Shown here piece after piece: positions 20,467 through 47,321 of a stretch of DNA of 50,093 nt. The first letter of the stretch is position 1; the number at the start of each line of letters is the position of its first letter. A model generated the notes under the pieces. The model was not told the origin of the DNA. It ran no database searches and worked only from the letters and a program-made list of their open reading frames with translations. Source of the DNA: Thermomicrobiaceae bacterium (GTDB taxonomy: Bacteria; Chloroflexota; Chloroflexia; Thermomicrobiales; Thermomicrobiaceae). The stretch covers positions 1 to 50,093 of the forward strand of contig SLMJ01000049.1 in assembly GCA_007133615.1 (NCBI GenBank). Reading direction: 5' to 3'. The position numbers and the translations under genes are program-made.

Positions 20467-20901
20467 TCAGGGACGAGCAGGATCAACTTCGTCTGGAAGT
20501 CGGTTCAGTATTTCCCGATGGATCTTGGCTGCCGTATCAACGAACATATCTACGGCTTCCGGATCGGGTTCGGCCTGCAGGTCGGGATATCGGCTTTGAA
20601 GCGCATAGGTTGTGATCAGACGAGCCGGCTCGGAGAAATCCGGAATGTCTTGATTGATAGATTGACACTGACGCAGCAGTTCCACGAGGTTGTGAGTCTT
20701 CCGAAACGGGGTGTCGTGCCAGACCAGAAATCCCTTCAATGCCTTCTCAACGGCTTGCTGAGCGTGGTACGCGGCGACATCATCCAACCTCGGTGATTCG
20801 AGTGCACGATGACACGTGCTGAGATCGTCGCGGGACTTCCGAAGCCACTCGCGAGTCAATTGTGCTCTGATATCCCCCGGAGATGCACCTTCAGTTGGCA
20901 T
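20467..20901 (-). CDS. HEPN domain protein (toxin of a HEPN/MNT pair)
   Basis: WLRKSRDDL...AYHAQQAVEKALKGFLVWHD.PFRKTHNLVELL matches the COG2250-type HEPN helix pattern with the R..H motif. ATG 20901 overlaps the upstream gene's stop by 11 nt. The longer ORF to 21018 overlaps the MNT coding region. Confidence 0.8.
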   Translation of the reverse strand: MPTEGASPGDIRAQLTREWLRKSRDDLSTCHRALESPRLDDVAAYHAQQAVEKALKGFLVWHDTPFRKTHNLVELLRQCQSINQDIPDFSEPARLITTYALQSRYPDLQAEPDPEAVDMFVDTAAKIHREILNRLPDEVDPARP

Positions 20902-21226
20902 ACAGCAAGGTGCCTTCTCGCTGAACGGTTGAGGAGAGGGAAGCCGCCGCGGATTGCTGATCCTCAAACTGTTCGACTGTGAATACCAGGACCTCGCCGG
21001 AGAGGTCCAGATCTTCAATCGATGCCAGTGCGCGAGCCGCTCGCCGATAGTGAGGTTCCAGGGATTCTGCTACCACCACAAGGATGTCGTAATCCGAATC
21101 CTCCCGGTGGTCTCCGCGTGCCCGGGACCCGAATAGATAGATGCGCTCCGGCTGGAAGTGCTCAACCAGCCGGCGCACTGCTTCGGTCAAATCCGGATGG
21201 AAGCGCTCGTCAACGGTTATGCCCAT
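20891..21226 (-). CDS. minimal nucleotidyltransferase (MNT; antitoxin partner of HEPN)
   Basis: LFGSRARGDHREDSDYDILVVV is the GS..(D/E).D nucleotidyltransferase signature. ATG 21226 is preferred. The ORF is open to 21322, but that start would overlap the preceding gene by 37 nt. Confidence 0.8.
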   Translation of the reverse strand: MGITVDERFHPDLTEAVRRLVEHFQPERIYLFGSRARGDHREDSDYDILVVVAESLEPHYRRAARALASIEDLDLSGEVLVFTVEQFEDQQSAAASLSSTVQREGTLLYAN

Positions 21227-29860: not shown

Positions 29861-30115
29861 TTATGCTTTCTCGGACTTGCGCCAGGCCGGGAGCGTGAAC
29901 CGCTTTGCGCTCGATTTCTGGTTCCTGACCTGATAGCCAACGAGTTCGGACTCCTGATACGTCGCAACAACGTCACCGCGTTGGTTACGGCATACGAGCC
30001 AGCGTGGCGAGTGTTTGGATCCGGCCCGACTCGCCTGTGCCGGGCTCCAGGAGCAGGAATGTGCGGCTCGCAGCTCCTCAACCTGACCGTTCCGGAGATG
30101 GACAACGATCGGCAT
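29861..30115 (-). CDS. hypothetical small protein (84 aa)
   Basis: GAGGTG lies 7 nt upstream of ATG 30115. Composition is more protein-like than the overlapping Arg-rich frame at 29851-30144. No recognisable motif. Confidence 0.4.
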   Translation of the reverse strand: MPIVVHLRNGQVEELRAAHSCSWSPAQASRAGSKHSPRWLVCRNQRGDVVATYQESELVGYQVRNQKSSAKRFTLPAWRKSEKA

Positions 30116-30355: not shown

Positions 30356-31345
30356 TCAATCGACCCTGGATTCGGGAGAAATCGAATACCGATCATGCCA
30401 GTAGTAAAGATGTTGCGGATGGGTCTGAATCACGCGAATGCATGCGCGGACTAGTTGTGGATCAAACTGCGTTCCGCGATTTGCTTCGAGCTCGGCAAGT
30501 GCATCCCGATAGGAGAGCCCTGGACGATACGGGCGTGCGGATGTCATTGCCTCGAATGCGTCCGCCACGGCGAGAATCCTGGCGCCGCAGGGAATCGCAC
30601 TACCGCTGAGTCCGTCCGGATAGCCGGTGCCATCGTACCGCTCGTGGTGACCGCGCACGTCTTGCTGGTATTCGCGGAAGTCCTCGATGCTCTTGACGAA
30701 CTCCTCTGAGCGGATCGGGTGTTGCCGGATCAGTTCCCATTCATCCATGCTCAGCGGACCCTGCTTGTTCAGCACGTTGTCCGGAATCCAGAGTTTTCCG
30801 ACGTCGTGCAAGAGAGCCGCCCAGCGGATCCGCTCGCAGTAACCCTGATCGAGATTCATCTCTCTGGCAATGGCGGTGGCGAGTTCCGATACCCGCTCGG
30901 AGTGTCTGGCAGTGTAGGGGCTTTTGGCGTCGATGGTTTTGACGAACGCGAGGACCGCATCTTCATGGAGGCGCTCACTGCGGCGAAGCCGATCATGGAG
31001 AATCGTAGCGCCGCCTCCGCTGATGAGTCCGATTGTAACGAAGAATGCTCCTCGGGAAACCCAGTTCTGCACGGACTGAGCCTGCCCGGTATCAGCGTCG
31101 AGTGGCATCAGTGGTCCACAGGCGATCATCGCCAACCCACCAGTGAGGAGCCCGCCTGATGCGCCGAATCGGTAGGCGGCGAAGATGACTGGCACGTAGA
31201 ACGTGTGCGGAAATGCGCGGTGCGTGCCTCCGGTCAGATAGGTGATGGCCCAGGCAAGGGCAAGCCCCACGACGATGAGGATCATTGGTGTGATTGCATC
31301 GCGAAATGGTCGGCTTATGCTTGAAGGAACCGTGTTTGAACGCAT
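30356..31345 (-). CDS. HD-GYP domain cyclic-di-GMP phosphodiesterase with N-terminal membrane domain
   Basis: HSERV...LLHDVGK (the HD motif) and HHERYDGTGYPDGL (the GYP motif) are present. The N-terminal ~130 residues form several hydrophobic helices. Confidence 0.85.
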   Translation of the reverse strand: MRSNTVPSSISRPFRDAITPMILIVVGLALAWAITYLTGGTHRAFPHTFYVPVIFAAYRFGASGGLLTGGLAMIACGPLMPLDADTGQAQSVQNWVSRGAFFVTIGLISGGGATILHDRLRRSERLHEDAVLAFVKTIDAKSPYTARHSERVSELATAIAREMNLDQGYCERIRWAALLHDVGKLWIPDNVLNKQGPLSMDEWELIRQHPIRSEEFVKSIEDFREYQQDVRGHHERYDGTGYPDGLSGSAIPCGARILAVADAFEAMTSARPYRPGLSYRDALAELEANRGTQFDPQLVRACIRVIQTHPQHLYYWHDRYSISPESRVD

Positions 31346-31513
31346 CTTTGTTAGAACTGACCGGATTCGATGAACTGGATTTCAGAATCATAATGAGCAT
31401 CCTAACATGCAATTGAACGCGACGGAAGTATCCGGTTTTACTGAACATTCGCCCGGAAGAAACCGCTCAGTCGGAGAGCGATAGTGTGACATGATGTCAA
31501 CCATAGCAGGGTC

Positions 31514-31542
31514 TGGACATTCGTGTTTCCATACCGTATGAT
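31514..31542 (+). promoter_or_regulatory. candidate sigma-70-type promoter (TGGACA, 17 nt spacer, TATGAT)
   Basis: Hexamers at 31514-31519 and 31537-31542 have an exact 17-nt spacer. The site is in the AT-richer gap upstream of the polysaccharide locus. Confidence 0.35.
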
Positions 31543-31548
31543 GATCTA

Positions 31549-31816
31549 CGAGTGGGGACCCAAGGGATCGCCACTCGCATAGAGCCCAGGTTGAGCGTAA
31601 AGCGCCTGCCGTCTCGTTTTCGGTCGGAGAACGAGGTCAAGGGTTCGGGCAAAGATGGGTTTTTCGTTCACTGGATCTTGCGATTCAGTTGCATCGGAAG
31701 ACTGGCACAACAATTAAATCCAAAGAGACTTTGAAACGTGAGCTGCAAGATGGGCACCTCGCTCACGTGGAGTCAGTGGTGCAACCGGCTTTCGGATTCC
31801 CGAGCCGGTTTTTTCT
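31549..31816 (+). ncRNA. candidate structured leader RNA or sRNA (unclassified), ending in an intrinsic terminator
   Basis: Lies between the putative promoter and the terminator. Hairpins: GAGTGG/CCACTC (31551-31577), CTCGTTTTC/GAGAACGAG (about 31611-31633) and ACGTGAGC/GCTCACGT (31736-31768). There is no convincing ORF. Confidence 0.3.
31783..31816 (+). terminator. intrinsic terminator (AACCGGCT...AGCCGGTT followed by a T-run)
   Basis: An 8-bp stem at 31783-31790 and 31803-31810 is followed by a run of six T (31809-31814, the first two lying within the stem), then CTTG. Orientation is specific to the plus strand. It sits 25-90 nt upstream of the first polysaccharide gene. Confidence 0.6.
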
Positions 31817-31906
31817 TGTGCTCTGGAAGCCGTAAGACCAGTGACGCGAACAACTCAGGTCCATCATTTCGATTGGACCAGGTACGACATTAGGAAGGTG
31901 GGCACC

Positions 31907-32719
31907 ATGCCTGATGGTCGGTTCGCGTCTACAAGCCTGCAAGCTGTCGATATGTCTTTCTCGGTCGCGAGTTCTGAGACTTCGACCGGGAGCGTCGAGC
32001 CTCTCGGAGTGGCTCGACCGCCCCTGAGTATCCCTGAAACATGGGATCGTGAGACGATCACGTGGCAGCAGGAGCGACTGATTCGACGAGAGTATTCCCG
32101 CAGTACGCTCGATCACGAATCCGCGACGACGACATCAAAACATGTGATTTATCAGATGAGCAAGCGAGTGCTCGATGTATCGCTGGCGATACTAGCACTC
32201 ATCCTGCTCGCGCCAATCATGCTTGTGGTGGCGCTTGCGATCCGGCTGGATTCACCAGGTCCGGCGCTGTTCAAGCAGCAGCGGGTGGGCAAGAGCGGTC
32301 AGCTTTTCCGCATGTACAAATTCCGCTCGATGACGGAAAACGCCGGCGTCCGCCTGAATGGTCTGCACAAATCGAGTGATGACGATCGGATCACTCGCGT
32401 CGGGGCCTTCATCCGGAAGACAAGTCTGGACGAGCTCCCACAGCTGCTCAACGTGATTCTCGGACATATGAGCCTGGTCGGACCGCGACCGGAGCTGCCG
32501 GAGATCGTGCTGCAGCGTTATGAGCCCTGGCAGTACAAGCGACTGAATGTTCCGCAGGGAATCACCGGCTGGTGGCAGGTGACCGGACGCGGGAAGAAGC
32601 TCCTCTGGAAGCACACCGCTGATGACCTGTACTACGTGGAACGCGCGTCCTTGTGGTTCGACCTGAAGCTGTTGTTCATGACCGCAAAAGCGGTATTCAG
32701 CCGGGACGGGGCGTTCTAG
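31907..32719 (+). CDS. undecaprenyl-phosphate sugar phosphotransferase (bacterial sugar transferase; priming enzyme)
   Basis: [77 protein letters not shown] and [10 protein letters not shown] support the call. ATG 31907 has AGGAAGGTGG upstream. The ORF opens at GTG 31841, and ATG 32156 is a shorter alternative. Confidence 0.85.
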
Positions 32720-33084
32720 CCACGCAGTGGAGAGACGCCAGTGACGGTTCGACGAGTCTTTACGTGACCAGCGCATGCGTTCCTGTTCCGTTCGTCCTGA
32801 ATTGCGCCAGTTTCTCAATTTCGGGAGTGGCTGCCAGCCCCGGCGAAGCGACTGATCCAGCTGTGGTCAGGAAGGATCGCTTCACCGGGGCTGGTTCCGT
32901 AACGGGAACCTGAACGAATCCGGAGGCGGATCGTCTTCCGCAGATCAGTACTGCTGGGCTGATTACACCGCGGCTGTAACAGGTATTAATCAATCAGTAA
33001 CGCATTCAAGCAGCAGGTGCCCCTGGGGAATCATCCGGGAGCCGGATACCTCACACAATGTCGGGATCGAAAGGATAATTCTCA

Positions 33085-34065
33085 ATGGAACAGCGCGTCA
33101 CGGTTACTGGTGCCGGAGGATTCATTGGCCACCACCTCGTCAAAAACCTCAAGCAGCGTGGCTACTGGGTTCGCGGTGTGGACATCAAGGAACCCGAATA
33201 CGAGTCGACCGACGCCGACGAATTCCTCCTGCTCGACCTTCGAACCTGGGAGAACTGTGTTCAGGCGGTCGATGGCGTGGAGCACGTCTACCATCTTGCG
33301 GCAGACATGGGTGGCATTGGCTACATCACGGCAAACCACGCCGACATTGCTCGAAACGATATTCTGATCAACACACACATGCTGGAAGCGAGCAGGAAGG
33401 CCGGGGTATTCCGCTTTCTGTTCTCCTCGTCTGCCTGCATCTATCCAGAGTACCGGCAGAACGAAGCCGACGTCACGGCGCTGAAGGAAGATGACGCCTA
33501 CCCGGCCATGCCGGAGGAGGGCTACGGCTGGGAGAAACTCTTCACCGAGAAGCTCTGCCAGTATTACCAGGAAGACTATGAGATCGAGACTCGGGTTGCC
33601 CGGTTCCACAACGTCTACGGGCCGCTCGGAACCTGGGATGGCGGCAAAGAGAAGGCCCCGGCGGCCATTTCCCGGAAGATCGCAATGGCTGAGGATGTCG
33701 ACGAGATCGATATCTGGGGTGACGGTAGCCAGACGCGGTCGTTCATGTATATCGACGATTGTGTCGAGGGCGTCTACCGCATCATGCACAGCGAGTATCA
33801 GATGCCCCTGAACCTGGGCACCGACGAGCTGGTGACGATCAACGAACTCGTCGATACCGTCGCGCGGATCGCTGGCAAGCAGATCGAGAAGAAGCACGAT
33901 CTCTCGAAGCCGCAGGGCGTCCGTGGTCGCAACAGCGACAACACCCGGATCAAGGAAATTCTTGGCTGGGCACCCTCGATCCCGCTGGAGCAGGGGCTCG
34001 CCGACACGTATCGATGGGTCGCGGAGCAGGTACGGACTGCCGCGGTGCCGGGGCATACGCGATAG
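33085..34065 (+). CDS. gme: GDP-mannose 3,5-epimerase homologue (extended SDR)
   Basis: Strong colinearity with plant GME as recalled: TGAGGFI, LAADMGG.G.I..NH, SSACIYPE, YG.EKL..E.LC..Y..D..IE.R..RFHN.YGP.GTW.GG.EKAPAA..RK, WGDG.QTRSF..IDDCVEGV, and GVRGRNSDN..IKE.LGWAP. Confidence 0.85.
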   Translation: MEQRVTVTGAGGFIGHHLVKNLKQRGYWVRGVDIKEPEYESTDADEFLLLDLRTWENCVQAVDGVEHVYHLAADMGGIGYITANHADIARNDILINTHMLEASRKAGVFRFLFSSSACIYPEYRQNEADVTALKEDDAYPAMPEEGYGWEKLFTEKLCQYYQEDYEIETRVARFHNVYGPLGTWDGGKEKAPAAISRKIAMAEDVDEIDIWGDGSQTRSFMYIDDCVEGVYRIMHSEYQMPLNLGTDELVTINELVDTVARIAGKQIEKKHDLSKPQGVRGRNSDNTRIKEILGWAPSIPLEQGLADTYRWVAEQVRTAAVPGHTR

Positions 34066-34127
34066 CTTGAAGAAGCCGCTCGCGGACTCGTCATGATCGG
34101 GCAGCGCCAAAGCAGCAAAAGGGACTG

Positions 34128-34976
34128 ATGGTTAGAGAGTTACGGAACGCAATTGCACGAAAGCTGGCGCACATTGCGTGCTGCCTGCGCTGTTATCGCG
34201 ATCCGTTTGCAGCGCTGGTCAATTGCCTTGGATTCAAACTGAGTGACCAGGACATCCGGTACTCGTTGCGTAACGGTCTGAAGTTTGACGTGAACCGCGG
34301 GGCTGTTGACGTACGGACCATTAATCACGTTGTCTGCCAGAGACTGTATGAACCGAATTCGATATTCAAGGTCAGCGATGGTTGGAACGTGCTTGACCTC
34401 GGCGCTCACAAAGGGGTCTTCAGCGTCCAGTCGGGTGCCCGCGGCAGAAGCGTCCGCGTGATCGCGGTAGAACCGGAGCCGGACAACTACCGGCATATCA
34501 TCCGGAACGCAGAGATCAACGGGTTGTCCAACGTTGAGGTGCATAATCGAGCAGTGGCTGTTCAGCCGGGCGACGCGACACTGGTGCTTAGCGATGCGTC
34601 GTGGGGACATCGGCTGACTGAGTCGGCAGATGAAACCGGATCGAACGTGCTGAACGTCGAAACGGTGTCGCTCGATGATTTGATCCAGTCATTCAAAGGC
34701 GACGTCGATCTGCTGAAGATTGATATTGAAGGAGCGGAGTTCGATGTTCTCTATGGCCTCGATCAAGCGCTCTGGGGCCGGGTTCGTCGAATAGCGATGG
34801 AGTATCACGCAGACTTTGGCTCATCGGGCGACGGACGCAGTGGTGAAGATCTGGCTGCCTATCTGGAGCAGAACGGTTTTCGATGCATGTTTGTTGAAGG
34901 AGCCCATGACCATCTCTTCGCCTGGCGAGCAGATGACAGCAAGGGAACCGGAGTAGCTGCGACCGCGTTGCAGTAG
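34128..34976 (+). CDS. FkbM-family SAM-dependent methyltransferase
   Basis: VLDLGAHKGVFSV (SAM motif I), IAVEPEPDNY, plus VSLDDLI and LLKIDIEGAEFDVL are typical of Methyltransf_21/FkbM. Confidence 0.8.
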   Translation: MVRELRNAIARKLAHIACCLRCYRDPFAALVNCLGFKLSDQDIRYSLRNGLKFDVNRGAVDVRTINHVVCQRLYEPNSIFKVSDGWNVLDLGAHKGVFSVQSGARGRSVRVIAVEPEPDNYRHIIRNAEINGLSNVEVHNRAVAVQPGDATLVLSDASWGHRLTESADETGSNVLNVETVSLDDLIQSFKGDVDLLKIDIEGAEFDVLYGLDQALWGRVRRIAMEYHADFGSSGDGRSGEDLAAYLEQNGFRCMFVEGAHDHLFAWRADDSKGTGVAATALQ

Positions 34977-34981
34977 CTCAG

Positions 34982-36232
34982 ATGGCGATCCGGGATGGAG
35001 TTCATATGCGTGACAACCCCAATATGGAGAGACTCCCCCGGCAGTACGACCTGGACTGGTTGCGAGTCTTCGTTATCCTGTTCGTCTTCATGTTTCACGT
35101 TGGCATCATCTTCAGTGTGGATGATCTCGGTGTCCATTCCGATTGGCGGAACGGCACGCTTGGCCAGTTGTTGTTCTTCACGTCGTTTCTGCGGATGCCA
35201 GTGCTGTTCTTCATCGCCGGTGCCGGAACCTGGTTTCTGTTCCGACGGCGCGATGTCCAGCAGTTCTTTTCCGAACGTGTTCGGCGCCTGTTGATTCCGT
35301 TCATTAGCGCGTTGATCCTGATCGTTCCTGCGATGAGCTACATTGGATACCGCTTTCAGGCCGAACAGGCCGGGGAACGCATTCCTGGCTTCGGCGAGGT
35401 CTTCGTACAGTTGATCACCGCTATGCCGCACGAGTGGATGCATCTCTGGTTCATCGCCTATCTCCTGCTGTTCTCCCTGCTTGCCGCTCCGCTGTTCCAG
35501 TACCTGAAAACCGAACGCGGTCAGGCATTGCTGAATCGCGTGCTCTGCGCGCTCGACTGGCGCTGGGGAGTGTTGCTGTTCGCGGTTCCGATGATTCTGA
35601 TCGAGTGGTCGATGCAGTGGCGTTTCGTTGGTGACGTTCCGCTCGTCAACGACTGGGCCGACTTCACGCTCTATTTTTATCTGTTCATCTGTGGCTTCAT
35701 TCTCGTTGGCGATCCCCGATTCTGGGAACAGGTGCAGCGATTGCTCCCAGTGTCAGTCATCGCCACTGCGGGGCTGTTTGTGACCTTGCCGATTGCCCGA
35801 CAGCAGGTTGATCTGACTCAGAGTTTTCCGACTCACTGGGACTATTCACTCATTCAAGTGGGAATGGGCCTGATTGGATGGACGTCATTGCTCGCCGCTG
35901 TCGGTCTCACCCGGCGCTTCCTTTCGTTCGAAAATGCAGCGCTGCGCTACGCACGAGACGCAAGTTACCCGTTCTATCTTTTGCACATGCTTCCTCTGTG
36001 GGCGGTGGCGTACGTGGTCGTTTCCCTGTCGATGCCATATCCGATTGAGTTCGTTCTTATTACAGGCGTTTCGTTTGTGTTGACGCTGGCCATCTACGAG
36101 GTTCTGGTCCGGCGGCACCCTTCGACTCGATTCGCGTTCGGACTGAAACCGGTCTCGCAGGACTCACATCCAGCACGCACGCCACAGGATCTTGTGGCTT
36201 CTCGAGCGGGCCGGCACGGAAGCTCCGGTTAG
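34982..36232 (+). CDS. membrane acyltransferase family 3 protein (polysaccharide O-acyltransferase/OpgC-like)
   Basis: The LDWLRVFVILFVFMFH N-terminal motif is present and the protein has about 10 hydrophobic helices throughout. Several in-frame ATGs leave the start ambiguous. Confidence 0.75.
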   Translation: MAIRDGVHMRDNPNMERLPRQYDLDWLRVFVILFVFMFHVGIIFSVDDLGVHSDWRNGTLGQLLFFTSFLRMPVLFFIAGAGTWFLFRRRDVQQFFSERVRRLLIPFISALILIVPAMSYIGYRFQAEQAGERIPGFGEVFVQLITAMPHEWMHLWFIAYLLLFSLLAAPLFQYLKTERGQALLNRVLCALDWRWGVLLFAVPMILIEWSMQWRFVGDVPLVNDWADFTLYFYLFICGFILVGDPRFWEQVQRLLPVSVIATAGLFVTLPIARQQVDLTQSFPTHWDYSLIQVGMGLIGWTSLLAAVGLTRRFLSFENAALRYARDASYPFYLLHMLPLWAVAYVVVSLSMPYPIEFVLITGVSFVLTLAIYEVLVRRHPSTRFAFGLKPVSQDSHPARTPQDLVASRAGRHGSSG

Positions 36233-36319
36233 CAAAGTGGATCTTCGCGTGAGTGTACTGATCCTTACTGCCTTCATTGCATCGTACACCAGTGTTCGGG
36301 ACGACTCGAGGTATCTACG

Positions 36320-37663
36320 TTGATTCGATGGCTCTGGGACAATCCAGTTGTTACGGCGGTTACCAGCGTCCTCGATCGCCGCATTATCGAGACGGCCGTC
36401 GCGCTCTACAGCGTGCAGGCAATGAACTACATCCTGCCGCTCGTCACCATTCCGTATCTTGCTCGCGTGCTTGGACCAGGCCCATGGGGCGAGTTGATGT
36501 TCGTCATGTCGATTGCTGCGTTCGTCCACATGGTGATCAACTATTCGTTTGAGTTGTCCGCCACGCGGGACGTCGCCCAGCAACGTGGTGATCCAGACGC
36601 GATTTCAAGAACCGTTGCGGGTGTGCTCGGTGCTCGACTGGTGTTGACGGTCGGAATACTGGTTGTGATCGGCATCGCTCAACTGGTGTCGACAACCCTG
36701 GCGGATCTTGGCTGGTTGCTCTGGCTAGGTGTTTACTGGTTCGTGGCGATGGGATTCCACCCGTTCTGGTTCTATCTCGGGATCGAGCGGGTTCGAACTG
36801 CGGTCACGATTGACGTAATCATCCGGGCAATTGCGGCCGGACTGGTGATTCTGCTCGTCAATGCTCCGGGTGATGCCTGGTTGGTCTTCACGCTACAGGG
36901 AACCGGCACCATGCTGGCGATGATCGTGACCACCATTATGATCTACCGCCACGTTCCGTTCCGATTGCCGGACCTTCGTTTGACGATCGACACGCTCAAG
37001 TCCGGTGCTGGGCTGTTCATCTTCAGGGCATCGACCGGCCTCTATGCAATGAGTAACACCATCATTCTTGGTTTCGTGTCGGCACCGGCGGCTGTCGCGT
37101 TTTATTCCGCCGGAGAACGAATCCAGCGAATCACTACGACGGTCCTGCAAACGATTACCAACGCGATGTTTCCGCGAGCATCAATGCTCGCCAAGAGTAA
37201 TCCACAGCAAGCGGCACGTCTGGCGCGGGTCTCGACGTTTACGATGTTCGCGTTGGCCCTTGTCGGGGTGGGGATACTCTACCTTCTGGCCCCCTGGATC
37301 GTGCTGATTATTCTGGGAAGTGGATACGAGGAGGTTGTGCCCGTACTCCGGATCCTCTTCCTGGTGGTACTTCTTCACAGTATCAACATCCCGATAGGGC
37401 ATCACTGGTTGATTCCGAACGGCTACGATGGGTTGTTGACGAAGATCACGGCGACCGCGGGAGTTATTCACATCCCGGTCGCGATATTCCTGGCGATGCA
37501 GTATGCGCACATCGGCGTCGCCTGGGCGCTGGTCGGTGCAGAAGCGATCATCATGGTATTGCTGATTGTTATCCCACTGATCAAAGGCATCGGGCCATTC
37601 AGAATGCCGCTGCGTGACTCCGGGACTCTGACGTCGACGCCGATGGAGAGTGTGAACTCATGA
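36320..37663 (+). CDS. wzx: Wzx-type oligosaccharide flippase (MOP superfamily polysaccharide biosynthesis protein)
   Basis: Polytopic membrane protein of about 447 aa. The N-terminus ...LYSVQAMNYILPLVTIPYLARVLGPGPWG is typical of PF01943 flippases. TTG start is uncertain. Confidence 0.8.
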   Translation: MIRWLWDNPVVTAVTSVLDRRIIETAVALYSVQAMNYILPLVTIPYLARVLGPGPWGELMFVMSIAAFVHMVINYSFELSATRDVAQQRGDPDAISRTVAGVLGARLVLTVGILVVIGIAQLVSTTLADLGWLLWLGVYWFVAMGFHPFWFYLGIERVRTAVTIDVIIRAIAAGLVILLVNAPGDAWLVFTLQGTGTMLAMIVTTIMIYRHVPFRLPDLRLTIDTLKSGAGLFIFRASTGLYAMSNTIILGFVSAPAAVAFYSAGERIQRITTTVLQTITNAMFPRASMLAKSNPQQAARLARVSTFTMFALALVGVGILYLLAPWIVLIILGSGYEEVVPVLRILFLVVLLHSINIPIGHHWLIPNGYDGLLTKITATAGVIHIPVAIFLAMQYAHIGVAWALVGAEAIIMVLLIVIPLIKGIGPFRMPLRDSGTLTSTPMESVNS

Positions 37664-37709
37664 GTGTCGTTTCCGGACAGGCAACCGCAATGAATGCAGG
37701 GCAGTGCGT

Positions 37710-38678
37710 ATGCAGGTAAGCGTGGTCATCCCGGCACACAATGCCCAGAAGCACTTGCAGGAAGCGGTCGACAGTGTGTTGAACCAGACCCATCGGGATT
37801 TTGAACTCATTCTGATCGATGATGGCTCGACTGACGCGACGCTGACGATCATGCGTGAGTTTGAGGAACGTGATCAGCGCGTGCGGGTGATTTCCCATCC
37901 GAACTGGGGAATACCTCGCTCACTCAATCATGCAATCGAACAGGCTCGCAATGAGTGGATCGCCCGGATGGATGCTGACGACATCATGCATCCGGAGCGA
38001 CTGGAACGACAGGTCGCGTTCGTTCAGGAGAACCCTGATCTCGACGTTACTGGCACGTTAGTGACGTATATCGATCAGCGCGGTCGGGAAATTGGTCGCT
38101 GTCATCCAGTCGGTACCACTCGCGATTCGATCAAGGAGACACGTCAGGAGGGTCTGATCTCCGGAATCTATCATCCGACTGTTCTGATGAGACGCTCGAC
38201 GGTTCAATCGGTTGGCGGCTATCGTCCTGAACTGTGGACCGCTGAGGATATAGATCTCTGGGCTCGAATCGATGACGCCGGAGCTAAGGTGCTGGTTCAA
38301 GCAGAGTACTTGCTTCAGTACCGAGTGCACGGCGGTTCATCGGCCTTCGGGAAAACTCGCGACGTTGAACTGGCCCGCGAATGGATCCGCGCCTGCTCCC
38401 TCAATCGCCGAGCGGGGATTGCCGAACCAACGCTGGAGGAGTTCCTGGAGCAGCGAAACTCGCGTCCACTGCTGCAACGGCTGAATCAGAACCGGCGGGA
38501 GATTGCCGATGCGTGCTATCGAACGGCGGTGTTGTCCTACGGGACGCGCGACTACCTGAGGTTGATCGTATATGTCGCAGGAGCAACGATCCTCGGTTCG
38601 CCGCACGTGCGCAGACAGGTCGAATGGCGTCTGTTGCGCCCGGTGACGAGCCGGCTCATCAGGACCAAAGAGGCATGA
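37710..38678 (+). CDS. family 2 glycosyltransferase (copy A of a tandem pair)
   Basis: VSVVIPAHNAQKHL..AVDSVLNQTH.DFELILIDDGSTD and the DADD motif support the call. GTG 37704 is an alternative start. Confidence 0.85.
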   Translation: MQVSVVIPAHNAQKHLQEAVDSVLNQTHRDFELILIDDGSTDATLTIMREFEERDQRVRVISHPNWGIPRSLNHAIEQARNEWIARMDADDIMHPERLERQVAFVQENPDLDVTGTLVTYIDQRGREIGRCHPVGTTRDSIKETRQEGLISGIYHPTVLMRRSTVQSVGGYRPELWTAEDIDLWARIDDAGAKVLVQAEYLLQYRVHGGSSAFGKTRDVELAREWIRACSLNRRAGIAEPTLEEFLEQRNSRPLLQRLNQNRREIADACYRTAVLSYGTRDYLRLIVYVAGATILGSPHVRRQVEWRLLRPVTSRLIRTKEA

Positions 38679-38744
38679 TCGTTCGCGCCCGTTCGTAGTG
38701 GAATTGTATTCGAGCAACTGCACCGATCCGTGGATGGAACCAAT

Positions 38745-39701
38745 ATGTTCGTTAGTGTTGTCATCGCTGCGTACAATGCAGAGCCATTCTTGTGCGACCT
38801 CATGGAAAGCACGCTCGGGCAGACGCATGAGGACTTCGAAGTGGTCATCGTCGATGACGGTTCGACTGATCGAACGCTCGAACTGCTCCGCGAGTACGAA
38901 AAGCGTGACGACCGTGTCCGTGTAATCAGCCAGGAGAACCAGGGCGCAAGTATCGCCCGGAATCGTGCCATCGAGGCCGCACGGGCGGACTGGATCGCCT
39001 TGATGGACGCGGACGACACGATGGAGCCGAATCGACTCGAGCGTCAGATTGCCTTCATCGAGGAGCACCCCGAACTACACCTTGCCGCGACCATGGTGAT
39101 CCACATCGATGCCGATGGCAGGGAGATAGGACGCAGTGTTCCAGTGCTGACCCGCCACGAGGAAGTTGAAGCCGCGAAACAGCGGGGCGACATCATTGGA
39201 TTTCATCAGAATACGGTGCTGATGCGCCGTGATGTTTTTCAGGCAGTTGGCGGATATCGACACGAATTCTGGCCGGGTGAGGACATGGATCTCTGGGCCA
39301 GAATCGTCTATTCGGGATACCGTGTTCTCGTTCAGCCAGAGTACCTGGTTCGATACCGGGTTCACGGCTCTTCCGCCTCGGTGCAGACCAGAGAGTATCG
39401 CGAGAACGTACGCTGGATTCACACGTGCATCAACCGAAGGCTGAACGGGCTTCCCGAGCCGACTCGTGACGAGTACCTGCGGGGTCTGCAAAACGAGCCC
39501 TTGCTGACCCGGTTGAACATCAAGCGTATCGATACCGCATGGGTGTTCTACCGCAACGCGACGCTGGCGTTTGCAACTGGTAACCGCATTCAAGCCGCCT
39601 ATCAGGTTGTGATCGCGTCCATTCTGGATCCGCTGCACGCAGTGCCGAAAGTCATCCGGAAGCTGCGCCAGTCGATCCCCGGGACCCGCTCGGCACACTA
39701 G
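38745..39701 (+). CDS. family 2 glycosyltransferase (copy B of a tandem pair)
   Basis: VSVVIAAYNAEPFL...LGQTHEDFEVVIVDDGSTD and DADD are present. It is colinear with copy A over its whole length (..ERLERQ.AF..E.P.L...GGYR.E.W..ED.DLWARI....Y.V.YRVHG.S). GTG 38730 is an alternative start. Confidence 0.85.
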   Translation: MFVSVVIAAYNAEPFLCDLMESTLGQTHEDFEVVIVDDGSTDRTLELLREYEKRDDRVRVISQENQGASIARNRAIEAARADWIALMDADDTMEPNRLERQIAFIEEHPELHLAATMVIHIDADGREIGRSVPVLTRHEEVEAAKQRGDIIGFHQNTVLMRRDVFQAVGGYRHEFWPGEDMDLWARIVYSGYRVLVQPEYLVRYRVHGSSASVQTREYRENVRWIHTCINRRLNGLPEPTRDEYLRGLQNEPLLTRLNIKRIDTAWVFYRNATLAFATGNRIQAAYQVVIASILDPLHAVPKVIRKLRQSIPGTRSAH

Positions 39702-39717
39702 GAGTTCATCGCGGCGT

Positions 39718-41016
39718 ATGTCTGTTCTGGATCAAACAACTCATTCAAGTAACGATCCGGCAACCGGGGACGGTAGTGAATCGCCAGAGCGGTTGAACGT
39801 CCTCATATCTGCATTCTCTTGCTGGCCGGGAAAGGGGTCCGAGGCGGGAGTTGGCTGGAACTGGTCAACGATTGCTTCCCGGCACCACAACGTCTGGGTC
39901 CTGGTCTGGCCGGAGAATCGCCTGGCAATCGAAACCGAACTCGATCGAATGGACGGACCGAAGCCAAACTTCATCTACTGGCGTGTTCCGGGCTGGCCGG
40001 AGTCGTTGCTCCCGATCGACGAATACATGCGTATCTACTACGTTCTGTGGCAGCTGACGATCCTGCCAAGAGCATGGTGGCTGCACAAGCGGATCGGATT
40101 CGATGCGGTTCACCATCTCACGTTCAACACCATCGAACTGCCCGGATTTCTCTGGATACTGGGTGCACCGTTTTACTGGGGGCCTGTCGGCGGAGCCCAG
40201 GAGCCTCCCTCAAGCCTGCGGCATCACTTTGGTGGAGCATGGTTCGGCGAAGTGGTCCGGATTATCCGCAAGCGAATCGTCCCCTGGAACCCGTTGGTGA
40301 GAATGTCGCTCCGCCGCGCGAAGAAGGTACTGGCTGCCAACGAAGACACCGCGCGTCTGCTGGAAAAGTGCGGTGTAAAAGATCCGCCACGTGAACTGGA
40401 AACCGGCATCGATACCTCAACGATCGAGGTCGTGGACGAGTCGTCGGATCCGGAGCGACTGACGGTCCTCTGGGCCGGGAAGTTTTTCGCTCGGAAAGGA
40501 CCGTTCCTGGCGATATCGGCGATCGCCGAAGCGAAACGCCGGGGCATTCCTGTGCGCATGCTGATTGCCGGTGATGGCCCCCAGGAGTCGGCGATGAAGC
40601 AACACATCAACGCTCTGGGGCTCGATGAGGATGTCGAACTCCTGGGGCGACTCAATCATCAGGAGATGACCGAGTTCTACCGTCGAGGAGACGTCCTGTT
40701 CTTCTCGAGCCTGCACGATACATCAGGCAACGTCATGCTGGAAGCAATGGCGCACGGTCTTCCGGTTCTGGCGCTGGATCAGCACGGGGCTGCAGAGATA
40801 GTCGACGAGTACAGCGGAATCAAAGTCCCGGTGGCTGATGAGCAATCCGTGCTCACGGGGTTCGCGGATGGCATGCAGACGTTCTACGAGAATCCGGATC
40901 AGCGCAAATCCATGGGCTATTCGGCACGTAAGCGGGTTGAAGCAAAATACTCATGGAGTCGGAAGAACGAATTGATCCGGGATCTGTACGTCTCTGAATC
41001 GACGGTCAAAGCGTGA
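39718..41016 (+). CDS. family 4 (GT-B) glycosyltransferase
   Basis: The C-terminal Glycos_transf_1 pattern is present: GK.F.RKG, LIAGDGP, FFSSLHDTSGNVMLEAMAHGLPVLA and VP. Confidence 0.8.
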   Translation: MSVLDQTTHSSNDPATGDGSESPERLNVLISAFSCWPGKGSEAGVGWNWSTIASRHHNVWVLVWPENRLAIETELDRMDGPKPNFIYWRVPGWPESLLPIDEYMRIYYVLWQLTILPRAWWLHKRIGFDAVHHLTFNTIELPGFLWILGAPFYWGPVGGAQEPPSSLRHHFGGAWFGEVVRIIRKRIVPWNPLVRMSLRRAKKVLAANEDTARLLEKCGVKDPPRELETGIDTSTIEVVDESSDPERLTVLWAGKFFARKGPFLAISAIAEAKRRGIPVRMLIAGDGPQESAMKQHINALGLDEDVELLGRLNHQEMTEFYRRGDVLFFSSLHDTSGNVMLEAMAHGLPVLALDQHGAAEIVDEYSGIKVPVADEQSVLTGFADGMQTFYENPDQRKSMGYSARKRVEAKYSWSRKNELIRDLYVSESTVKA

Positions 41017-41074
41017 GCATCGAGCGGTTGCGGTTATGCCGGCCACTCAAACAGTCTGAAACACAGGAGAACCG

Positions 41075-42226
41075 GTGACAGCAAACGCCCGGCTGAGCAT
41101 CATCATCAACAACTTCAATTATGAGCGGTTTCTGCCCGCTGCAATCCAGAGTGCCCTGGATCAGACCTGGGCCGAGACCGAGGTCATAGTTGTCGATGAC
41201 GGCTCCAGTGATGGGTCTGCCTCTGTCATCCAGTGGTTTGGGGATGCAGTGATTCCGGTCTTCAAGGAGAACGGTGGGCAAGCCTCCGCGATTAACGTCG
41301 GCTTTCGGGCGAGTTCCGGGGATGCCGTGATATTCCTCGACGCTGACGACGTGCTGGAATCTCACATTGGCGAGCGAGTGATGGCGATCGTCAACCACGA
41401 ACCCGATGTTGCGAAGATCCAGTTCCGGCTCCGGATGATCGATGGTGATGGCGAGGATCTCGGCGCGGTTGTGCCGCCATCGTGGCAGTTATTACCGAAC
41501 GGCGATCTGCGTTCCTGGATCGTCCGGCATCGCTCTTACGTCTATCCGCCGACAAGCGGCAACGCCTTCACCCGGGCAGCACTCAAAGAGATCTGGCCGA
41601 TTCCCGAGACGACGTTCAGGATCTCCGCCGATCAATACCTTCATCATGCCACGCCGCTTGTCGGCACAGTGAGAGCCATCGACACAGTCGGCGGACGCTA
41701 TCGCCTGCATCAGTCCAACCACTATGTAACGCGAGAAATCGATCTGAATCGGGTCAGAACCGAGATCGTCATCAGCCGTGACGGGCATCCCTTCTATCGG
41801 GAGATTGCGGAACGTACCGGCCTCTACGCGTACCCGCGGACGTATCTGGATGTCAGTGACCGAATCCTGTTCGGCTTGCGGTTGACATCGCTGAAACTCG
41901 ATCCCGGACGCCATCCAGTACCCGGGGATAGTGTTTTCCGCCTCGGCATTCGCGGGATTCTCGCGACCGTCAGAGCACCGGATTCGTCACTCGCACGCAA
42001 GCTGTTTCAGAGCATCTGGTTTGCGGGCGTCGCGTTGCTGCCTCGTCGACAAGCTGCCTGGATCGTTCTGCAACGAATGCAGGTCAACACTCCCGCCCAG
42101 CGTTCCGATTCGAAGGAATCTGGGCGAGTTCGGAGCCTGTTTGTCCGCCTGATTTCTCGAAAATCTGGGAACGATATCGAGATGAACCCCGAAAACGCAC
42201 CGAAACGAGGTGTTGGCAATGGATGA
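41075..42226 (+). CDS. family 2 glycosyltransferase
   Basis: LSIIINNFNYERFL..AI.SALDQTW...EVIVVDDGSSDGS and LDADD support the call. AGGAGA lies upstream of GTG 41075. Confidence 0.8.
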   Translation: MTANARLSIIINNFNYERFLPAAIQSALDQTWAETEVIVVDDGSSDGSASVIQWFGDAVIPVFKENGGQASAINVGFRASSGDAVIFLDADDVLESHIGERVMAIVNHEPDVAKIQFRLRMIDGDGEDLGAVVPPSWQLLPNGDLRSWIVRHRSYVYPPTSGNAFTRAALKEIWPIPETTFRISADQYLHHATPLVGTVRAIDTVGGRYRLHQSNHYVTREIDLNRVRTEIVISRDGHPFYREIAERTGLYAYPRTYLDVSDRILFGLRLTSLKLDPGRHPVPGDSVFRLGIRGILATVRAPDSSLARKLFQSIWFAGVALLPRRQAAWIVLQRMQVNTPAQRSDSKESGRVRSLFVRLISRKSGNDIEMNPENAPKRGVGNG

Positions 42227-43682
42227 GTCTCGGCAAGGGGGGCAAGTCCAAGACCCTGAACAAATGCGACTGGTCAAGCTGGCCTGGCTCGCACTGATCT
42301 GGGGTGTGCTCCTCGCGCCGATGTTCATGACGTTCGCCCACCCTGGAACCGCCGGTCCCGAGTTCTATTCCGCGGCGGAGCCAGTGCAACGCGTGCCGAG
42401 TGGGCCGTTGGCGCCGCTGTTGATCCTGCTCGCCCAATACGGTCTTCTCGGGATCGGTGCGGCAGCAGTCATCATAGCGGTTCGCGTACCGAAGCCATTG
42501 ACTTCTGGACTCGGGCTCTGGCTCGGGGCAATGCTTATGACGATGGGCCCGTTCCTGGCGATGTTCTTCGGCGCCGAACCTGGGCTTCGCAGCGCGATTG
42601 TCCGGATTCCGATTATCTTCACGGCAGCGTTTCTGTTACCCAGTCCCGGGGTCGATTGGTTTGTTCGGAGATGCAAAGGGGTCATCGAGTTCTACACAGC
42701 GATGTCCCTGGGAGCAATGCTTGTCGCCCAGCAGTGGGTGCTGACGACCGACTACGCCGGGTCGATCATCCCGGGTATTTCGATCCGTTTACACGGCATC
42801 GCCGGACACGCGAACAATTTTGCGCTGCTTCTGCTGGTCTACCTGATCATCGGATGGATAGTTCCGGCCCGGACCGTCCGGGAGCGGTTCATGCTCGGCA
42901 TGATTCTGACTGCGCTGGTACTCACGCAATCGAAGACGATCTTTCTCGTTACCGCAATCGTGTACGTCATCAGGCTGTTCTACATGAGCGGGATGACGCG
43001 CTTGCTTGCTCCCTACCTGCTGGCGGTGGGAGCCACGACGACCGCCCTGGTGGCTACCTTCATCAATCCGCGGTGGCCGGGTGAACTCGTCAGCCATATC
43101 TTCACCGAAGACGTCGTTACGCTGACCGGTCGGACCAACGTCTGGGAGTTTACGACCGAGTTATGGCGTGAGAATCCGATATTCGGTTATGGGGTGAATC
43201 TCTGGGACCAGCGGATGGCTCTGGACTTTGCCTCGATGTATGGCTGGTTGCCCGAACACGCTCACAACCAGTTCTATCAGACACTCGGTGAAGCCGGGCT
43301 CGTCGGCCTTACCGGCCTGCTGATATTCACCGTTATTCTGATCATGTACGCCGTTCGGCACCACTCCTGGACCCGTGGTGCGTCGCTGGCTCTGGTCGTG
43401 ACGCTTCTGGTTCGTGCGATTACCGAACTCTCGATGCACGGTGATCTCGGGGAATCATTCTTCGCGTTCTTCGTCACATTTGCTGCGTTGATTGTCATAA
43501 GTGCCGAAGCGCCGGAAACGGTGCGAGAGCAACGACCGTCCAGTCAGTCTGTCGTGCCCGCGATGCAATCTGCCGCCGGGACGATTCCGGCGGATCATCC
43601 CGGGGCTGTGGCTCCGGTTACGAGTTATTTCAGATCGGATATGAATGAGTCGTCCAGCGCGGAAGAATCGCGCTGGCCGTAA
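42219..43682 (+). CDS. wzy: O-antigen ligase/Wzy-like polysaccharide polymerase (Wzy_C domain)
   Basis: About 11 TM helices and an external loop with GRTNVWE...GYG....EHAHNQFYQTLGEAGLVGL, the O-antigen-ligase family motif. ATG 42219 has GAGGTG upstream and overlaps the preceding stop by 8 nt. Confidence 0.75.
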   Translation: MDESRQGGQVQDPEQMRLVKLAWLALIWGVLLAPMFMTFAHPGTAGPEFYSAAEPVQRVPSGPLAPLLILLAQYGLLGIGAAAVIIAVRVPKPLTSGLGLWLGAMLMTMGPFLAMFFGAEPGLRSAIVRIPIIFTAAFLLPSPGVDWFVRRCKGVIEFYTAMSLGAMLVAQQWVLTTDYAGSIIPGISIRLHGIAGHANNFALLLLVYLIIGWIVPARTVRERFMLGMILTALVLTQSKTIFLVTAIVYVIRLFYMSGMTRLLAPYLLAVGATTTALVATFINPRWPGELVSHIFTEDVVTLTGRTNVWEFTTELWRENPIFGYGVNLWDQRMALDFASMYGWLPEHAHNQFYQTLGEAGLVGLTGLLIFTVILIMYAVRHHSWTRGASLALVVTLLVRAITELSMHGDLGESFFAFFVTFAALIVISAEAPETVREQRPSSQSVVPAMQSAAGTIPADHPGAVAPVTSYFRSDMNESSSAEESRWP

Positions 43683-43699
43683 TGTAAGGAGCCGTTCAC

Positions 43700-46722: not shown

Positions 46723-47321
46723 CTGTCCGCTCCACTCCTGGTATGGGCTCTGCCCACAAGTGGGCAAACCTCACCGAAGTGAAACGCGACAGTTTCTGGA
46801 CTTCGTTGTCCTCAACTGGCAGCCTGGCTGTCTCTCAAGCAGGAGACCCATGGCTTTGCGTCCCCGTCTCACGACGGGTTTGCCCTTATCAGCAAGCCCC
46901 AGTCTACGTTCTCCGCGTAAGTGGAGCATGAGAGATTGGTGCAGACTAAGGTGTCCGATACTCCCAGTACCATCGGGACGTCTTTACCACGTCTTGGGAG
47001 CACTGGATGAAACGCAGATTCGGAAAGTGTTTTCCCATTCATCAGGGACAGAAGTACTGCACTATGCGTACGCAGGTTCGAAATCCGGACACACTATTGG
47101 TCACTGTACCCGGTGTGCTGATGATTTCCCTGATTTCTGAAGGGCCGAAGCCGAATCTTCCTGTAGCTGCCAGCGTGATTGGTTCAGGCGTCACGCCACG
47201 TGACCGGATCCGAGACGGAAAGTCGCTCGAGATCCGGACTATTTCACCATGCAGACGCCTCGCCCTGGCTTTTCGCCCTCGAGTAAACTGTTAGTACGCT
47301 GAACGTTCTACCCGGGAACTG

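Follow-up and report, generated by a model that had tools for sequence, protein, structure and literature searches.

The leader of a Wzx/Wzy-type polysaccharide operon in an uncultured bacterium of the Chloroflexota very probably houses a class II c-di-GMP riboswitch that works as a transcriptional ON switch, a reading to which we assign a probability of nearly nine in ten. In the window (the whole stretch of 50,093 nt that was analysed), a promoter, a structured leader, the aptamer and an intrinsic terminator sharing sequence with the aptamer stand in this order before the gene of a priming sugar transferase (Table 1). The ligand is presumably c-di-GMP and the direction of switching is predicted from energetics; the arrangement would most likely tie exopolysaccharide synthesis to high levels of the second messenger.

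Table 1. Features of the leader, its neighbours and the downstream genes (window positions; empty cells, nothing reported).
Feature	Position	Strand	Details
HD_5 gene	30356-31345	-	Motifs HD (LLHDVGK) and HHERYDGTGYP
Intergenic gap	31346-31906		561 nt, between the HD_5 and Bac_transf genes
TGACA-type repeats	31486-31500	+	GTGACATGATGTCAA, just upstream of the -35 box; from the alignment and extracted upstream sequences
Sigma-70-type promoter	31514-31542	+	-35 TGGACA, 17-nt spacer, -10 TATGAT
5'-proximal leader hairpin	31550-31576	+	Minimum-free-energy fold
Conserved upstream domain	31613-31703	+	~95 nt, upstream of the aptamer; hairpin A and helix B
Hairpin A	31613-31635	+	Stem CUCGUUUUC/GAGAACGAG, loop GGUCG(GAG); motif GGUCGGAG at 31622-31629
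Helix B	31658-31703	+	GGUUUUUCG (31658-31666) pairs with CGGAAGACU (31695-31703)
c-di-GMP-II riboswitch aptamer	31715-31799	+	RF01786, Rfam covariance model
Aptamer helix P1	31717-31725/31789-31798	+	C31793 bulged
Aptamer helix P2	31727-31729/31772-31774	+	
Aptamer helix P3	31736-31743/31761-31768	+	
Aptamer pseudoknot	31754-31758/31778-31782	+	P3 loop with 3' tail
Intrinsic terminator (expression platform)	31783-31817	+	11-bp stem AACCGGCU-UU-CGG / CCG-AGCCGGUU, loop AUUC, then UUUUUUCUU
Structured translation-initiation region	31845-31927	+	CGCGAAC (31845-31851) can pair with GUUCGCG (31921-31927); contains hairpin 31858-31879, Shine-Dalgarno AGGAAGGUG (31892-31900) and ATG 31907
Copy of pseudoknot strand	31899-31906	+	UGGGCACC directly before ATG; identical to the P3-loop pseudoknot strand at 31751-31758
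Bac_transf gene (priming sugar transferase)	31907-32719	+	Operon gene 1; ATG 31907
Regulated operon (putative)	31907-44857	+	Pfam matches
Second riboswitch, c-di-GMP-I-GGC	46814-46893	-	RF03167, GEMM-I-type variant; Rfam

Results

Aptamer class and conservation

The Rfam covariance model RF01786 matched the leader over its entire length (model positions 1-84 of 84) with 74.4 bits (gathering score 53.5) and an E value of 5e-15 for the whole window. An earlier sequence-only reading of this stretch had raised the idea of a c-di-GMP-sensing RNA while declining to name a known class; the match bears out the former, overturns the latter and removes the possible novelty that had been assumed. The GEMM-I-like words pointed out on that occasion (31596-31607 and around 31648) are spurious, as they are unconserved in the orthologues and as even permissive filters and E <= 10 gave no match in 31300-31950 to any member of clan CL00126 (GEMM-I, RF01051). 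The proposed riboswitch of ~265 nt also had to be narrowed down, since it is a riboswitch whose sensor takes up only the 3' 85 nt of a leader RNA of ~268 nt. Judged from its sequence, the element is an ordinary new example of the c-di-GMP-II class and no new class. Within clan CL00127, which holds the variants c-di-GMP-II-GAG and -GCG, canonical RF01786 was the best-scoring model, lower-scoring overlapping clan matches being suppressed. The consensus blocks GA, UGA, UGGGCAC, GAG and AGUGGUGCAACCGGC were all found in the cmscan alignment and are invariant in the nine orthologues; together with the clan scores, they indicate that the aptamer is probably canonical rather than a variant. Class II aptamers feature a kink-turn-like P2-P3 junction, in which a 3-nt bulge is followed by tandem G.A/A.G. 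By inspection, such a junction is present here, with P2 GAC/GUC, the bulge UUU (31730-31732) and G31733-A31734 opposite G31770-A31771.

Comparative support came from eight orthologous metagenomic loci, all from one narrow clade, whose transferases share 60-77% identity. The aptamer lies upstream of the orthologous transferase in eight orthologous loci, with RF01786 scores of 62-67 bits, and the aptamer alignment contains nine distinct sequences including the window (a truncated tenth was seen in L178). Pairing holds in 92% of cells across the nine sequences versus 22-41% with slid partners, and eight aptamer pairs show compensatory changes. Helix P3 is 99% paired with compensatory changes in five of its eight pairs, and P2 is 96% paired with two of three. 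In the MAFFT alignment, P1 is paired in 80% of cells and has one compensatory pair; every orthologue carries a bulge or mismatch in this helix, at a shifting position. The pseudoknot strands GCACC and GGUGC are complementary at five of five pairs in all nine sequences. Since the pairs of the pseudoknot and of the terminator are invariant, they are without covariation support either way.

Strict synteny links aptamer, terminator and transferase gene throughout the orthologues. L169/L170 show decay of the aptamer core as well as of the terminator's 5' arm and U-run; the L169 copy has lost the conserved core nucleotides, and the transferase gene is retained in L169. This joint decay is as expected of one functional unit. 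Wider relatives of the transferase (matches of at most 50% identity) were collected by scans of genome and metagenome contigs, and the aptamer core was found in none of the 166 distant loci among the matches listed, an absence suggesting that the riboswitch may be clade-specific.

Terminator and switching mechanism

The plus-strand terminator recognized by the sequence-only reading is real: its stem (31783-31810, with a UU bulge) is 99% paired and nearly invariant in nine orthologues and is always followed by five to seven T residues, the U-run reaching 31814 in the window. The case for it is made by this conservation and by its overlap with the aptamer, because a plain terminator scan is non-significant alone (one match versus 0.7 expected). 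Its 5' arm (31783-31795) combines the aptamer core CAACCGGC with the 3' strand of P1, which makes aptamer and terminator mutually exclusive, in agreement with the alternative folds envisaged earlier. As a hairpin, the terminator alone reaches -16.0 kcal/mol versus -2.9 for P1, and P2, P3 and the terminator together reach -29.3 kcal/mol versus -16.0 for P1, P2 and P3. The unliganded terminator state is thus more stable by ~13 kcal/mol, a difference that predicts an ON switch. From the terminator to the ATG is a distance of 90 nt.

In the mechanism that we propose, the sigma-70-type promoter would drive a transcript from near 31549, and ~165 nt of structured leader would be transcribed before the aptamer. 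Bound c-di-GMP would lock P1, the pseudoknot and the CAACCGGC core, making positions 31783-31798 unavailable; with this segment sequestered, no terminator hairpin would form and transcription would read through into the priming transferase gene and the rest of the 13-kb operon. Without ligand, the far more stable terminator with its U-run would form and leave an RNA of ~268 nt.

Promoter and 5' part of the leader

The gap between the two divergent genes is as had been described, and the promoter-like pair within it proved to be real. Indeed, TGGACA-17-TATGAT is the sole match in the 900 nt scanned (31200-32100; 0.3 expected), and each of the eight orthologues that reach that far has a single T[TG]GACA-17/18-TAnnnN pair, which precedes the aptamer by 166-190 nt. 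Its position would place the transcription start near 31549. The TGACA-type repeats have an orthologous counterpart (GTGACATTTTGACAA-N13-TTGACAA) and possibly represent an activator site or an UP-like element. A sigma-54 promoter, CTGGCAC-N5-TTAA (31702-31717), was rejected: the GC of its -12 element is missing, the box is unconserved (GGCAAAAG and GGCGTAAT in orthologues) and a start there would truncate P1.

The overall fold of 31549-31820 has a z-score of -3.7 versus shuffles. All three stems named by the sequence-only reading were recovered, the third (31736-31768) being aptamer P3 and the other two the 5'-proximal hairpin and hairpin A. Conservation in related loci was confirmed for hairpin A, P3 and the terminator and failed for the 5'-proximal hairpin, whose sequence is unconserved in a stretch that is unalignable among orthologues. 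As nothing can be aligned from the -10 box to 31608 and the leader alignment contains frame-breaking indels, there is no conserved leader ORF, as had been proposed. Small ORFs, including a leader peptide, were likewise dismissed for both the leader and the gene 1-2 gap, because the tblastn matches fall on both strands and therefore reflect a conserved hairpin rather than coding sequence. Overall, the earlier picture of a promoter-driven leader with a conditional terminator before the first operon gene is supported computationally.

The domain upstream of the aptamer is conserved as well, with 86% of cells paired versus 35-56% in slid controls and seven compensatory pairs. Hairpin A, recovered as an RNAalifold helix, has compensatory changes in five of six pairs; helix B, paired in 90% of cells, encloses an inner hairpin (31670-31677/31682-31689), in which a population SNP (31685 T/C) converts a G-U pair into G-C. 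No Rfam family matched the domain at E <= 10. Our model of it, R1, matched only beside intact aptamers, was absent where the aptamer has decayed and detected no further copies in either the window or 80 distant loci. When the full leader is folded, the domain forms by itself, separate from the aptamer. Two other readings of this region were rejected. The stretch GGGUUUUUCG (31657-31666) is not the tail of an upstream terminator; instead, it supplies the 5' strand of helix B, where L172 has compensatory changes. A pseudoknot between the loop of hairpin A and a downstream GACC, as well as CsrA-type GGA sites, were sought by eye and are inconsistent across orthologues.

Start-codon region

Pairing within the translation-initiation region is 89% with little covariation. 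Among the orthologues whose aptamer is intact, all but L179 (which has GGGUACC at this place) carry the copied pseudoknot strand immediately next to the start codon; the copy is retained also in L169, whose aptamer is dead. GUGGUGC (31776-31782) could pair with GCACCAU (31902-31908) in a duplex of -11.8 kcal/mol versus -9.8 for the pseudoknot. In two of nine folds (L171 and L179), the pseudoknot strand appears paired with the start region, as read off dot-bracket strings.

Operon and neighbouring genes

From gene 1 onwards, Pfam matches identify a priming sugar transferase, an epimerase, an FkbM methyltransferase, an acyltransferase, a Wzx flippase, five glycosyltransferases and a Wzy polymerase, which we infer to be one operon. 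The gap between genes 1 and 2 shows no terminator and no convincing second promoter, and nothing in it reaches any Rfam gathering score; it does contain a conserved structured hairpin element (32820-32966).

The divergent neighbour had been named as an HD-GYP gene, and its product is a genuine HD-GYP protein, although the gene is no conserved partner of the operon: it is adjacent in the window, L168 and L172/L173 and absent in L169/L170, L171, L174, L175, L176/L177 and L179. Downstream, the c-di-GMP-I-GGC riboswitch is the sole GEMM-I-type match in the window and sits on a gene for a beta-helix enzyme, putatively polysaccharide-modifying.

Discussion

The c-di-GMP-II riboswitch class was reportedly described by Lee et al. 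in 2010. The element resembles members of RF01786 in its full-length model match, helices P1 to P3, pseudoknot complementarity, core blocks, location in a 5' UTR and possession of an expression platform; it differs in its host lineage, Chloroflexota rather than Clostridia, and in that ~165 nt, including a conserved domain, separate the aptamer from the predicted start. A structure of the Clostridium acetobutylicum aptamer is available (PDB 3Q3Z; Smith et al. 2011, cited in PMC7583470). [quoted passage not shown] The leader studied here belongs to the same class with the same predicted logic, c-di-GMP promoting read-through into genes for surface or adherence structures. However, Cdi-2-4 controls type IV pilus genes and was validated in vivo, whereas control of the Wzx/Wzy polysaccharide operon is a prediction. 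The riboswitches Vc2 and Bc2 belong to the c-di-GMP-I (GEMM-I) class, Bc2 being a terminator-based ON switch (PMC4933901, PMC6366702). The presumed ligand, the link with adhesion and matrix biology and, for Bc2, the terminator-based ON logic are shared with our element, but the fold is unrelated and the leader has no GEMM-I match at E <= 10. Tandem arrangements of c-di-GMP-II riboswitches have been reported as self doublets and triplets or with a group I ribozyme (PMC9481103). As in those cases, the class II aptamer lies inside a larger leader with further conserved RNA domains, although the upstream domain is here no ribozyme and no further class II aptamer. Finally, EAR (eps-associated RNA) is a conserved structured RNA of Bacillales eps operons. 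The likeness lies in the association of a structured RNA with an exopolysaccharide operon and in the comparable intra-operon position of the 32820-32966 element; the differences are the lack of a match to the Rfam EAR model and the presence of a riboswitch upstream of gene 1.

A simple ON switch may not be the whole of the regulation, because a conserved domain lies in the ~165 nt between the predicted start and the aptamer and because a copy of the pseudoknot strand stands at the start codon. The class II aptamer could then be genuine and yet one input of several, the upstream domain being a second sensor or a protein-binding platform and the copied strand adding a translational layer, so that two signals or two levels would be combined. 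We consider this unlikely. The conservation, pairing and compensatory changes of the domain, its restriction to loci with intact aptamers and its lack of an Rfam family speak for such a leader, as do the near-constant box before the ATG, the feasible duplex and the apparent joining of pseudoknot strand and start region in the L171 and L179 folds. However, conservation among nine sequences of one clade may be phylogenetic inertia, and the domain, which folds independently of the aptamer, offers neither a separate expression platform nor a ligand clue. Moreover, the persistence of the box in L169 beside a dead aptamer suggests translation-initiation or coding constraints, and both partners of the putative duplex are invariant, which makes covariation impossible. 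Slightly more doubtful is an extended version, in which an undescribed composite leader of ~360 nt, the conserved hairpin of the gene 1-2 gap and the GEMM-I-GGC riboswitch would form a multi-checkpoint RNA circuit under c-di-GMP control. Here, the upstream domain would sense a ligand or a protein as a second input, with the one terminator serving both inputs, and the free 31776-31782 strand would pair with the 31899-31906 copy to block translation of unliganded read-through transcripts, one aptamer controlling both termination and initiation.

Other readings question the ligand or the riboswitch itself. That the class II fold senses another nucleotide signal is very improbable: variant families of the same clan exist, some of which may sense other signals, lower-scoring clan matches were left out of the scan and the lineage is far removed from the Clostridia that served to validate the class, but it is the canonical model that gives the top score, at a value well over its cut-off, every core block is canonical, and the exopolysaccharide genes, the HD-GYP neighbour and the GEMM-I-type riboswitch of the locus fit c-di-GMP. 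The ~268-nt terminated RNA might instead be a stand-alone trans-acting small RNA, read-through into the operon being incidental or transcription coming from another promoter. A strong terminator favoured without ligand should indeed let a short, highly structured RNA accumulate at low c-di-GMP. We give this little credence, given that no promoter-like site lies between terminator and ATG in the 31200-32100 scan, that synteny with the transferase gene is strict, that aptamer and terminator decayed jointly in L169 with the gene retained, and that a cis-acting class II aptamer accounts for every part. Polysaccharide operons of other phyla use protein-dependent or processive antitermination systems, and both the leader and the gene 1-2 gap contain conserved RNA structures without explanation. 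The sequence-only reading had listed an EAR-like element or a protein-dependent antiterminator. Such a system, possibly dependent on a LoaP/NusG paralogue, would override the terminator in place of a riboswitch. This is just as hard to credit. At gathering score, the leader holds only the c-di-GMP-II aptamer and the gene 1-2 gap nothing, sub-threshold matches (lincRNA-p21_2, bZIP intron, miRNA precursors) belong to unrelated families, no EAR model of Rfam matched at E <= 10, and Pfam revealed no NusG/KOW paralogue among the scanned predicted proteins of at least 150 aa in the 50-kb window. Besides, the overlap of the terminator with a bona fide aptamer is already a complete mechanism, for which an antiterminator is unnecessary.

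On its own, the riboswitch is a routine annotation detectable with Rfam. The leader that houses it is nevertheless unusually long and conserved, and potential novelty lies only in its conserved domains and in the start-codon copy of the pseudoknot strand. Provided that these elements are functional, the leader would be a case of a class II aptamer at work on two levels or with two inputs. The locus joins three c-di-GMP-related parts, namely a class II riboswitch, a class I variant and an HD-GYP phosphodiesterase. To conclude, the predicted switch would extend terminator-based class II ON switches beyond the Clostridia, where they were validated, to the control of exopolysaccharide, and it predicts that this uncultured organism turns on its Wzx/Wzy polysaccharide operon as c-di-GMP rises.

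Results

A class II cyclic-di-GMP aptamer in the polysaccharide leader

The 561-nt gap at 31346-31906 lies between two genes. The one on the minus strand encodes a bona fide HD-GYP-type protein, in which an HD_5/HD domain carries the diagnostic motifs HD (LLHDVGK) and HHERYDGTGYP; the one on the plus strand (gene 1) encodes a Bac_transf priming sugar transferase. Plus-strand genes follow to 44857, encoding an epimerase, an FkbM methyltransferase, an acyltransferase, a Wzx-type flippase, five glycosyltransferases and a Wzy-type polymerase. Elsewhere, and unrelated to the leader, a stand-alone HEPN-domain protein (20467-21018, minus strand) may be the toxin component of a HEPN/nucleotidyltransferase pair.

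With gathering thresholds applied, Rfam 15 gave two matches in the entire window, one of which lies in this gap: RF01786, the c-di-GMP-II riboswitch aptamer, at 31715-31799 on the plus strand (74.4 bits, cut-off 53.5; E 5e-15; alignment over all 84 model positions). None of the blocks that are strongly conserved in the class is missing from the alignment: GA follows P1, UGA and GAG form the junctions, UGGGCAC lies in the P3 loop, and AGUGGUGCAACCGGC is also present. Rescanned permissively (E <= 10), 31300-31950 gave nothing else credible and no match of the GEMM-I (RF01051) type. The sequence-only reading, which proposed a candidate riboswitch without calling a class, had the right kind of element, albeit one that falls into a known curated family. 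The GEMM-I-like words that it noticed, GCGTAAAGCGCC and GGGCAAAG, are located 5' of the aptamer; no model matches them, and they are not kept in relatives. Its promoter pair and plus-strand terminator are both present (Table), as are hairpins at 31550-31576, 31613-31635 and 31736-31768, the third being aptamer P3. For the predicted leader RNA (31549-31820), the fold is better than that of 200 of 200 shuffled sequences (z = -3.7).

Table. Features of the leader RNA and of the element between genes 1 and 2
Feature	Position	Strand	Description	Basis
Promoter-like pair	31514-31542	+	TGGACA-17-TATGAT	sequence scan
Hairpin A	in 31613-31703	+	GGUCG(GAG) loop (GGUCGGAG), covarying stems	
Helix B	in 31613-31703	+	GGUUUUUCG/CGGAAGACU, encloses a smaller hairpin	RNAalifold
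P1	31717-31725 with 31789-31798	+	C31793 bulged	by inspection
P2	31727-31729 with 31772-31774	+		by inspection
P3	31736-31743 with 31761-31768	+		by inspection
Pseudoknot	31754-31758 with 31778-31782	+	GCACC with GGUGC	by inspection
Terminator-like hairpin and U-run	31783-31817	+		sequence, terminator scan
Gene 1-2 element	32820-32966	+	5' box GGGAGUGGCUG (UUCGGGAGUGGCUG); hairpin 32833-32895; 3' hairpin box AUCAGUACUGCUGGGCUGAUUACA	

Conservation of aptamer, terminator and promoter

The window sequence recurs near-identically in several metagenome assemblies and one MAG, with only three intergenic SNPs among these copies (31685, 31568 and 31418) and none in the aptamer. Named homologues of the transferase belong to Thermomicrobiaceae, Sphaerobacter and Chloroflexota, which points to a probable Chloroflexota origin of the window. 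For comparison, we used metagenomic contigs encoding transferase orthologues of 60-77% identity. RF01786 was matched at 62-67 bits in eight of these loci (L167, L168, L171, L172/L173, L174, L175, L176/L177 and L179), with the start codon some 100-190 nt downstream of it where called and confirmed; L178 holds a truncated copy, and the aptamer core was found in 0 of 166 more distant transferase loci. The sequence-only reading named a lack of stem conservation in related genomes as one refutation; the aptamer helices are kept with compensatory changes. Over the nine distinct aptamer sequences, 92% of cells are paired in the named structure versus 22-41% with partners slid; compensatory changes affect eight pairs, mostly in P2 (2/3) and P3 (5/8), and the pseudoknot is invariant. 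The terminator is 99% paired, essentially invariant and always followed by five to seven T.

The promoter call is supported by its conservation at a specific position, since each of the eight orthologues reaching that far has a single T[TG]GACA-17/18-TAnnnN pair, 166-190 nt before the aptamer. TGACA-type repeats (31486-31519, plus strand; GTGACATTTTGACAA-N13-TTGACAA in orthologues) extend upstream from and include the -35 box, are kept with or without the HD-GYP gene as divergent neighbour, and are possibly a transcription-factor site.

One lineage, represented by loci L169 and L170, carries a decayed copy: UGGGCAC, GCAACCGGC, the terminator 5' arm and the U-run are mutated, while the transferase gene and its Shine-Dalgarno sequence are retained. 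In L169 (2990-3095) and L170, GGTGAAAGTGAC replaces the core GGTGCAACCGGC and TCGGCAC replaces TGGGCAC, and the called transferase ORF is extended over the pseudo-riboswitch. Such joint loss of aptamer and terminator is expected of one functional unit and looks like the loss of c-di-GMP control in that lineage.

Additional RNA structures

The aptamer is preceded by about 165 nt of leader, of which the first 60-100 nt differ among orthologues and 31613-31703 is conserved. RNAalifold recovers both hairpin A and helix B in this domain, for which 86% of cells are paired versus 35-56% in slid controls and seven pairs show compensatory changes. No Rfam family matched it. A covariance model of the domain matched only beside intact class II aptamers of this clade, with no match in the decayed L169 leader (the domain is missing from L169/L170), the rest of the window or 80 distant loci. 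Coming from only nine sequences of a single clade, this evidence is suggestive. The population SNP at 31685 (T/C), located in the inner hairpin of helix B, turns a G-U into a G-C pair, which agrees with selection acting on the RNA structure.

Another strongly conserved structured element (Table) lies in the 366-nt gap between genes 1 and 2; it is found in most orthologous loci and in divergent form in L175. Its main hairpin is 92% paired with five compensatory pairs among five orthologues, and the element folds with z = -4.0. It has no U-run, and Rfam gave no family at gathering score over this gap, the only matches below threshold being a spurious bZIP intron and miRNA precursors. It is a candidate for RNA processing, stabilisation or antitermination. 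Among the predicted window proteins scanned, Pfam gave no NusG/KOW paralogue.

The second Rfam match in the window is RF03167, a c-di-GMP-I-GGC variant aptamer (46814-46893, minus strand; 75 bits, cut-off 59, full model). It immediately precedes a pectate-lyase-like beta-helix gene (44941-46767, minus strand) that is convergent with the polysaccharide operon. Since no terminator-like site was found after this aptamer, it may act at translation.

Discussion

The leader element adds to the c-di-GMP-II family an example whose host and gene context are unusual and whose mechanism is predictable. The terminator 5' arm (31783-31795) is made up of the conserved core, AACCGG, together with the P1 3' strand, so that ligand-bound aptamer and terminator are mutually exclusive. 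By nearest-neighbour energies, the terminator hairpin by itself contributes -16.0 kcal/mol, as against just -2.9 for P1, and P2, P3 and terminator together reach -29.3 versus -16.0 kcal/mol for P1, P2 and P3. Termination near 31814 would be the default, yielding an RNA of ~268 nt, and the ligand would stabilise P1, pseudoknot and core by tertiary contacts that should permit read-through. The leader should therefore be an ON switch, its ligand, switching direction and start site being predicted. In C. difficile, all four class II riboswitches are validated ON switches, and that of pilA1 is described as acting via a terminator formed without ligand (PMC6366702, PMC6200980); the logic predicted here matches this behaviour. 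The conditional terminator and possible c-di-GMP sensing put forward from sequence alone are supported computationally by the RF01786 match and the aptamer/terminator overlap, but in a known class and not through the spurious GEMM-I words.

That reading also leaned on the adjacent HD-GYP gene. This arrangement is not a conserved one: the HD-GYP neighbour occurs in the window, L168 and L172/L173, and is absent from L169/L170, L171, L174, L175, L176/L177 and L179, where the divergent neighbour is an 83-aa ORF or a beta-helix protein. The HD-GYP gene supports the c-di-GMP theme of the locus from outside the device itself. An 84-aa ORF without Pfam domain (29861-30115, minus strand) lies between a Ser/Thr kinase/beta-lactamase-like fusion and the polysaccharide leader; an ORF of 81-84 aa is called at the same position in most orthologous loci (L169, L171, L174, L175, L082-L085), and in several it is the first gene diverging from the riboswitch promoter; L172/L173 have a 107-aa ORF there.

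One hypothesis is a translational checkpoint at the start codon. An exact repeat of the P3-loop 8-mer UGGGCACC (31751-31758) abuts the ATG, at 31899-31906 (plus strand), in every intact-aptamer orthologue but L179, whose GGGUACC could still pair via wobble. The 3' pseudoknot strand could then form 7 bp with GCACCAU, spanning the start codon (-11.8 kcal/mol versus -9.8 for the pseudoknot). However, the box is also kept in L169, where the aptamer is dead, and both pairing partners are invariant. Another possible pairing, between CGCGAAC in the 5' UTR (31845-31851) and GUUCGCG in transferase codons 5-7 (31921-31927), would enclose the Shine-Dalgarno sequence and ATG; it is 89% paired over orthologues with almost no covariation, and its 3' side is under coding constraint. 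We consider it improbable that the conserved leader domains supply a real second input or control level, with a chance of at most about one in seven.

What remains new is the conserved leader domains beyond the riboswitch. As no promoter-like site was found by sequence scan between terminator and ATG, and no terminator between genes 1 and 2, the riboswitch plausibly controls the entire polysaccharide cluster over its predicted operon extent, and ON switching accords with the role of c-di-GMP in promoting the production of matrix.
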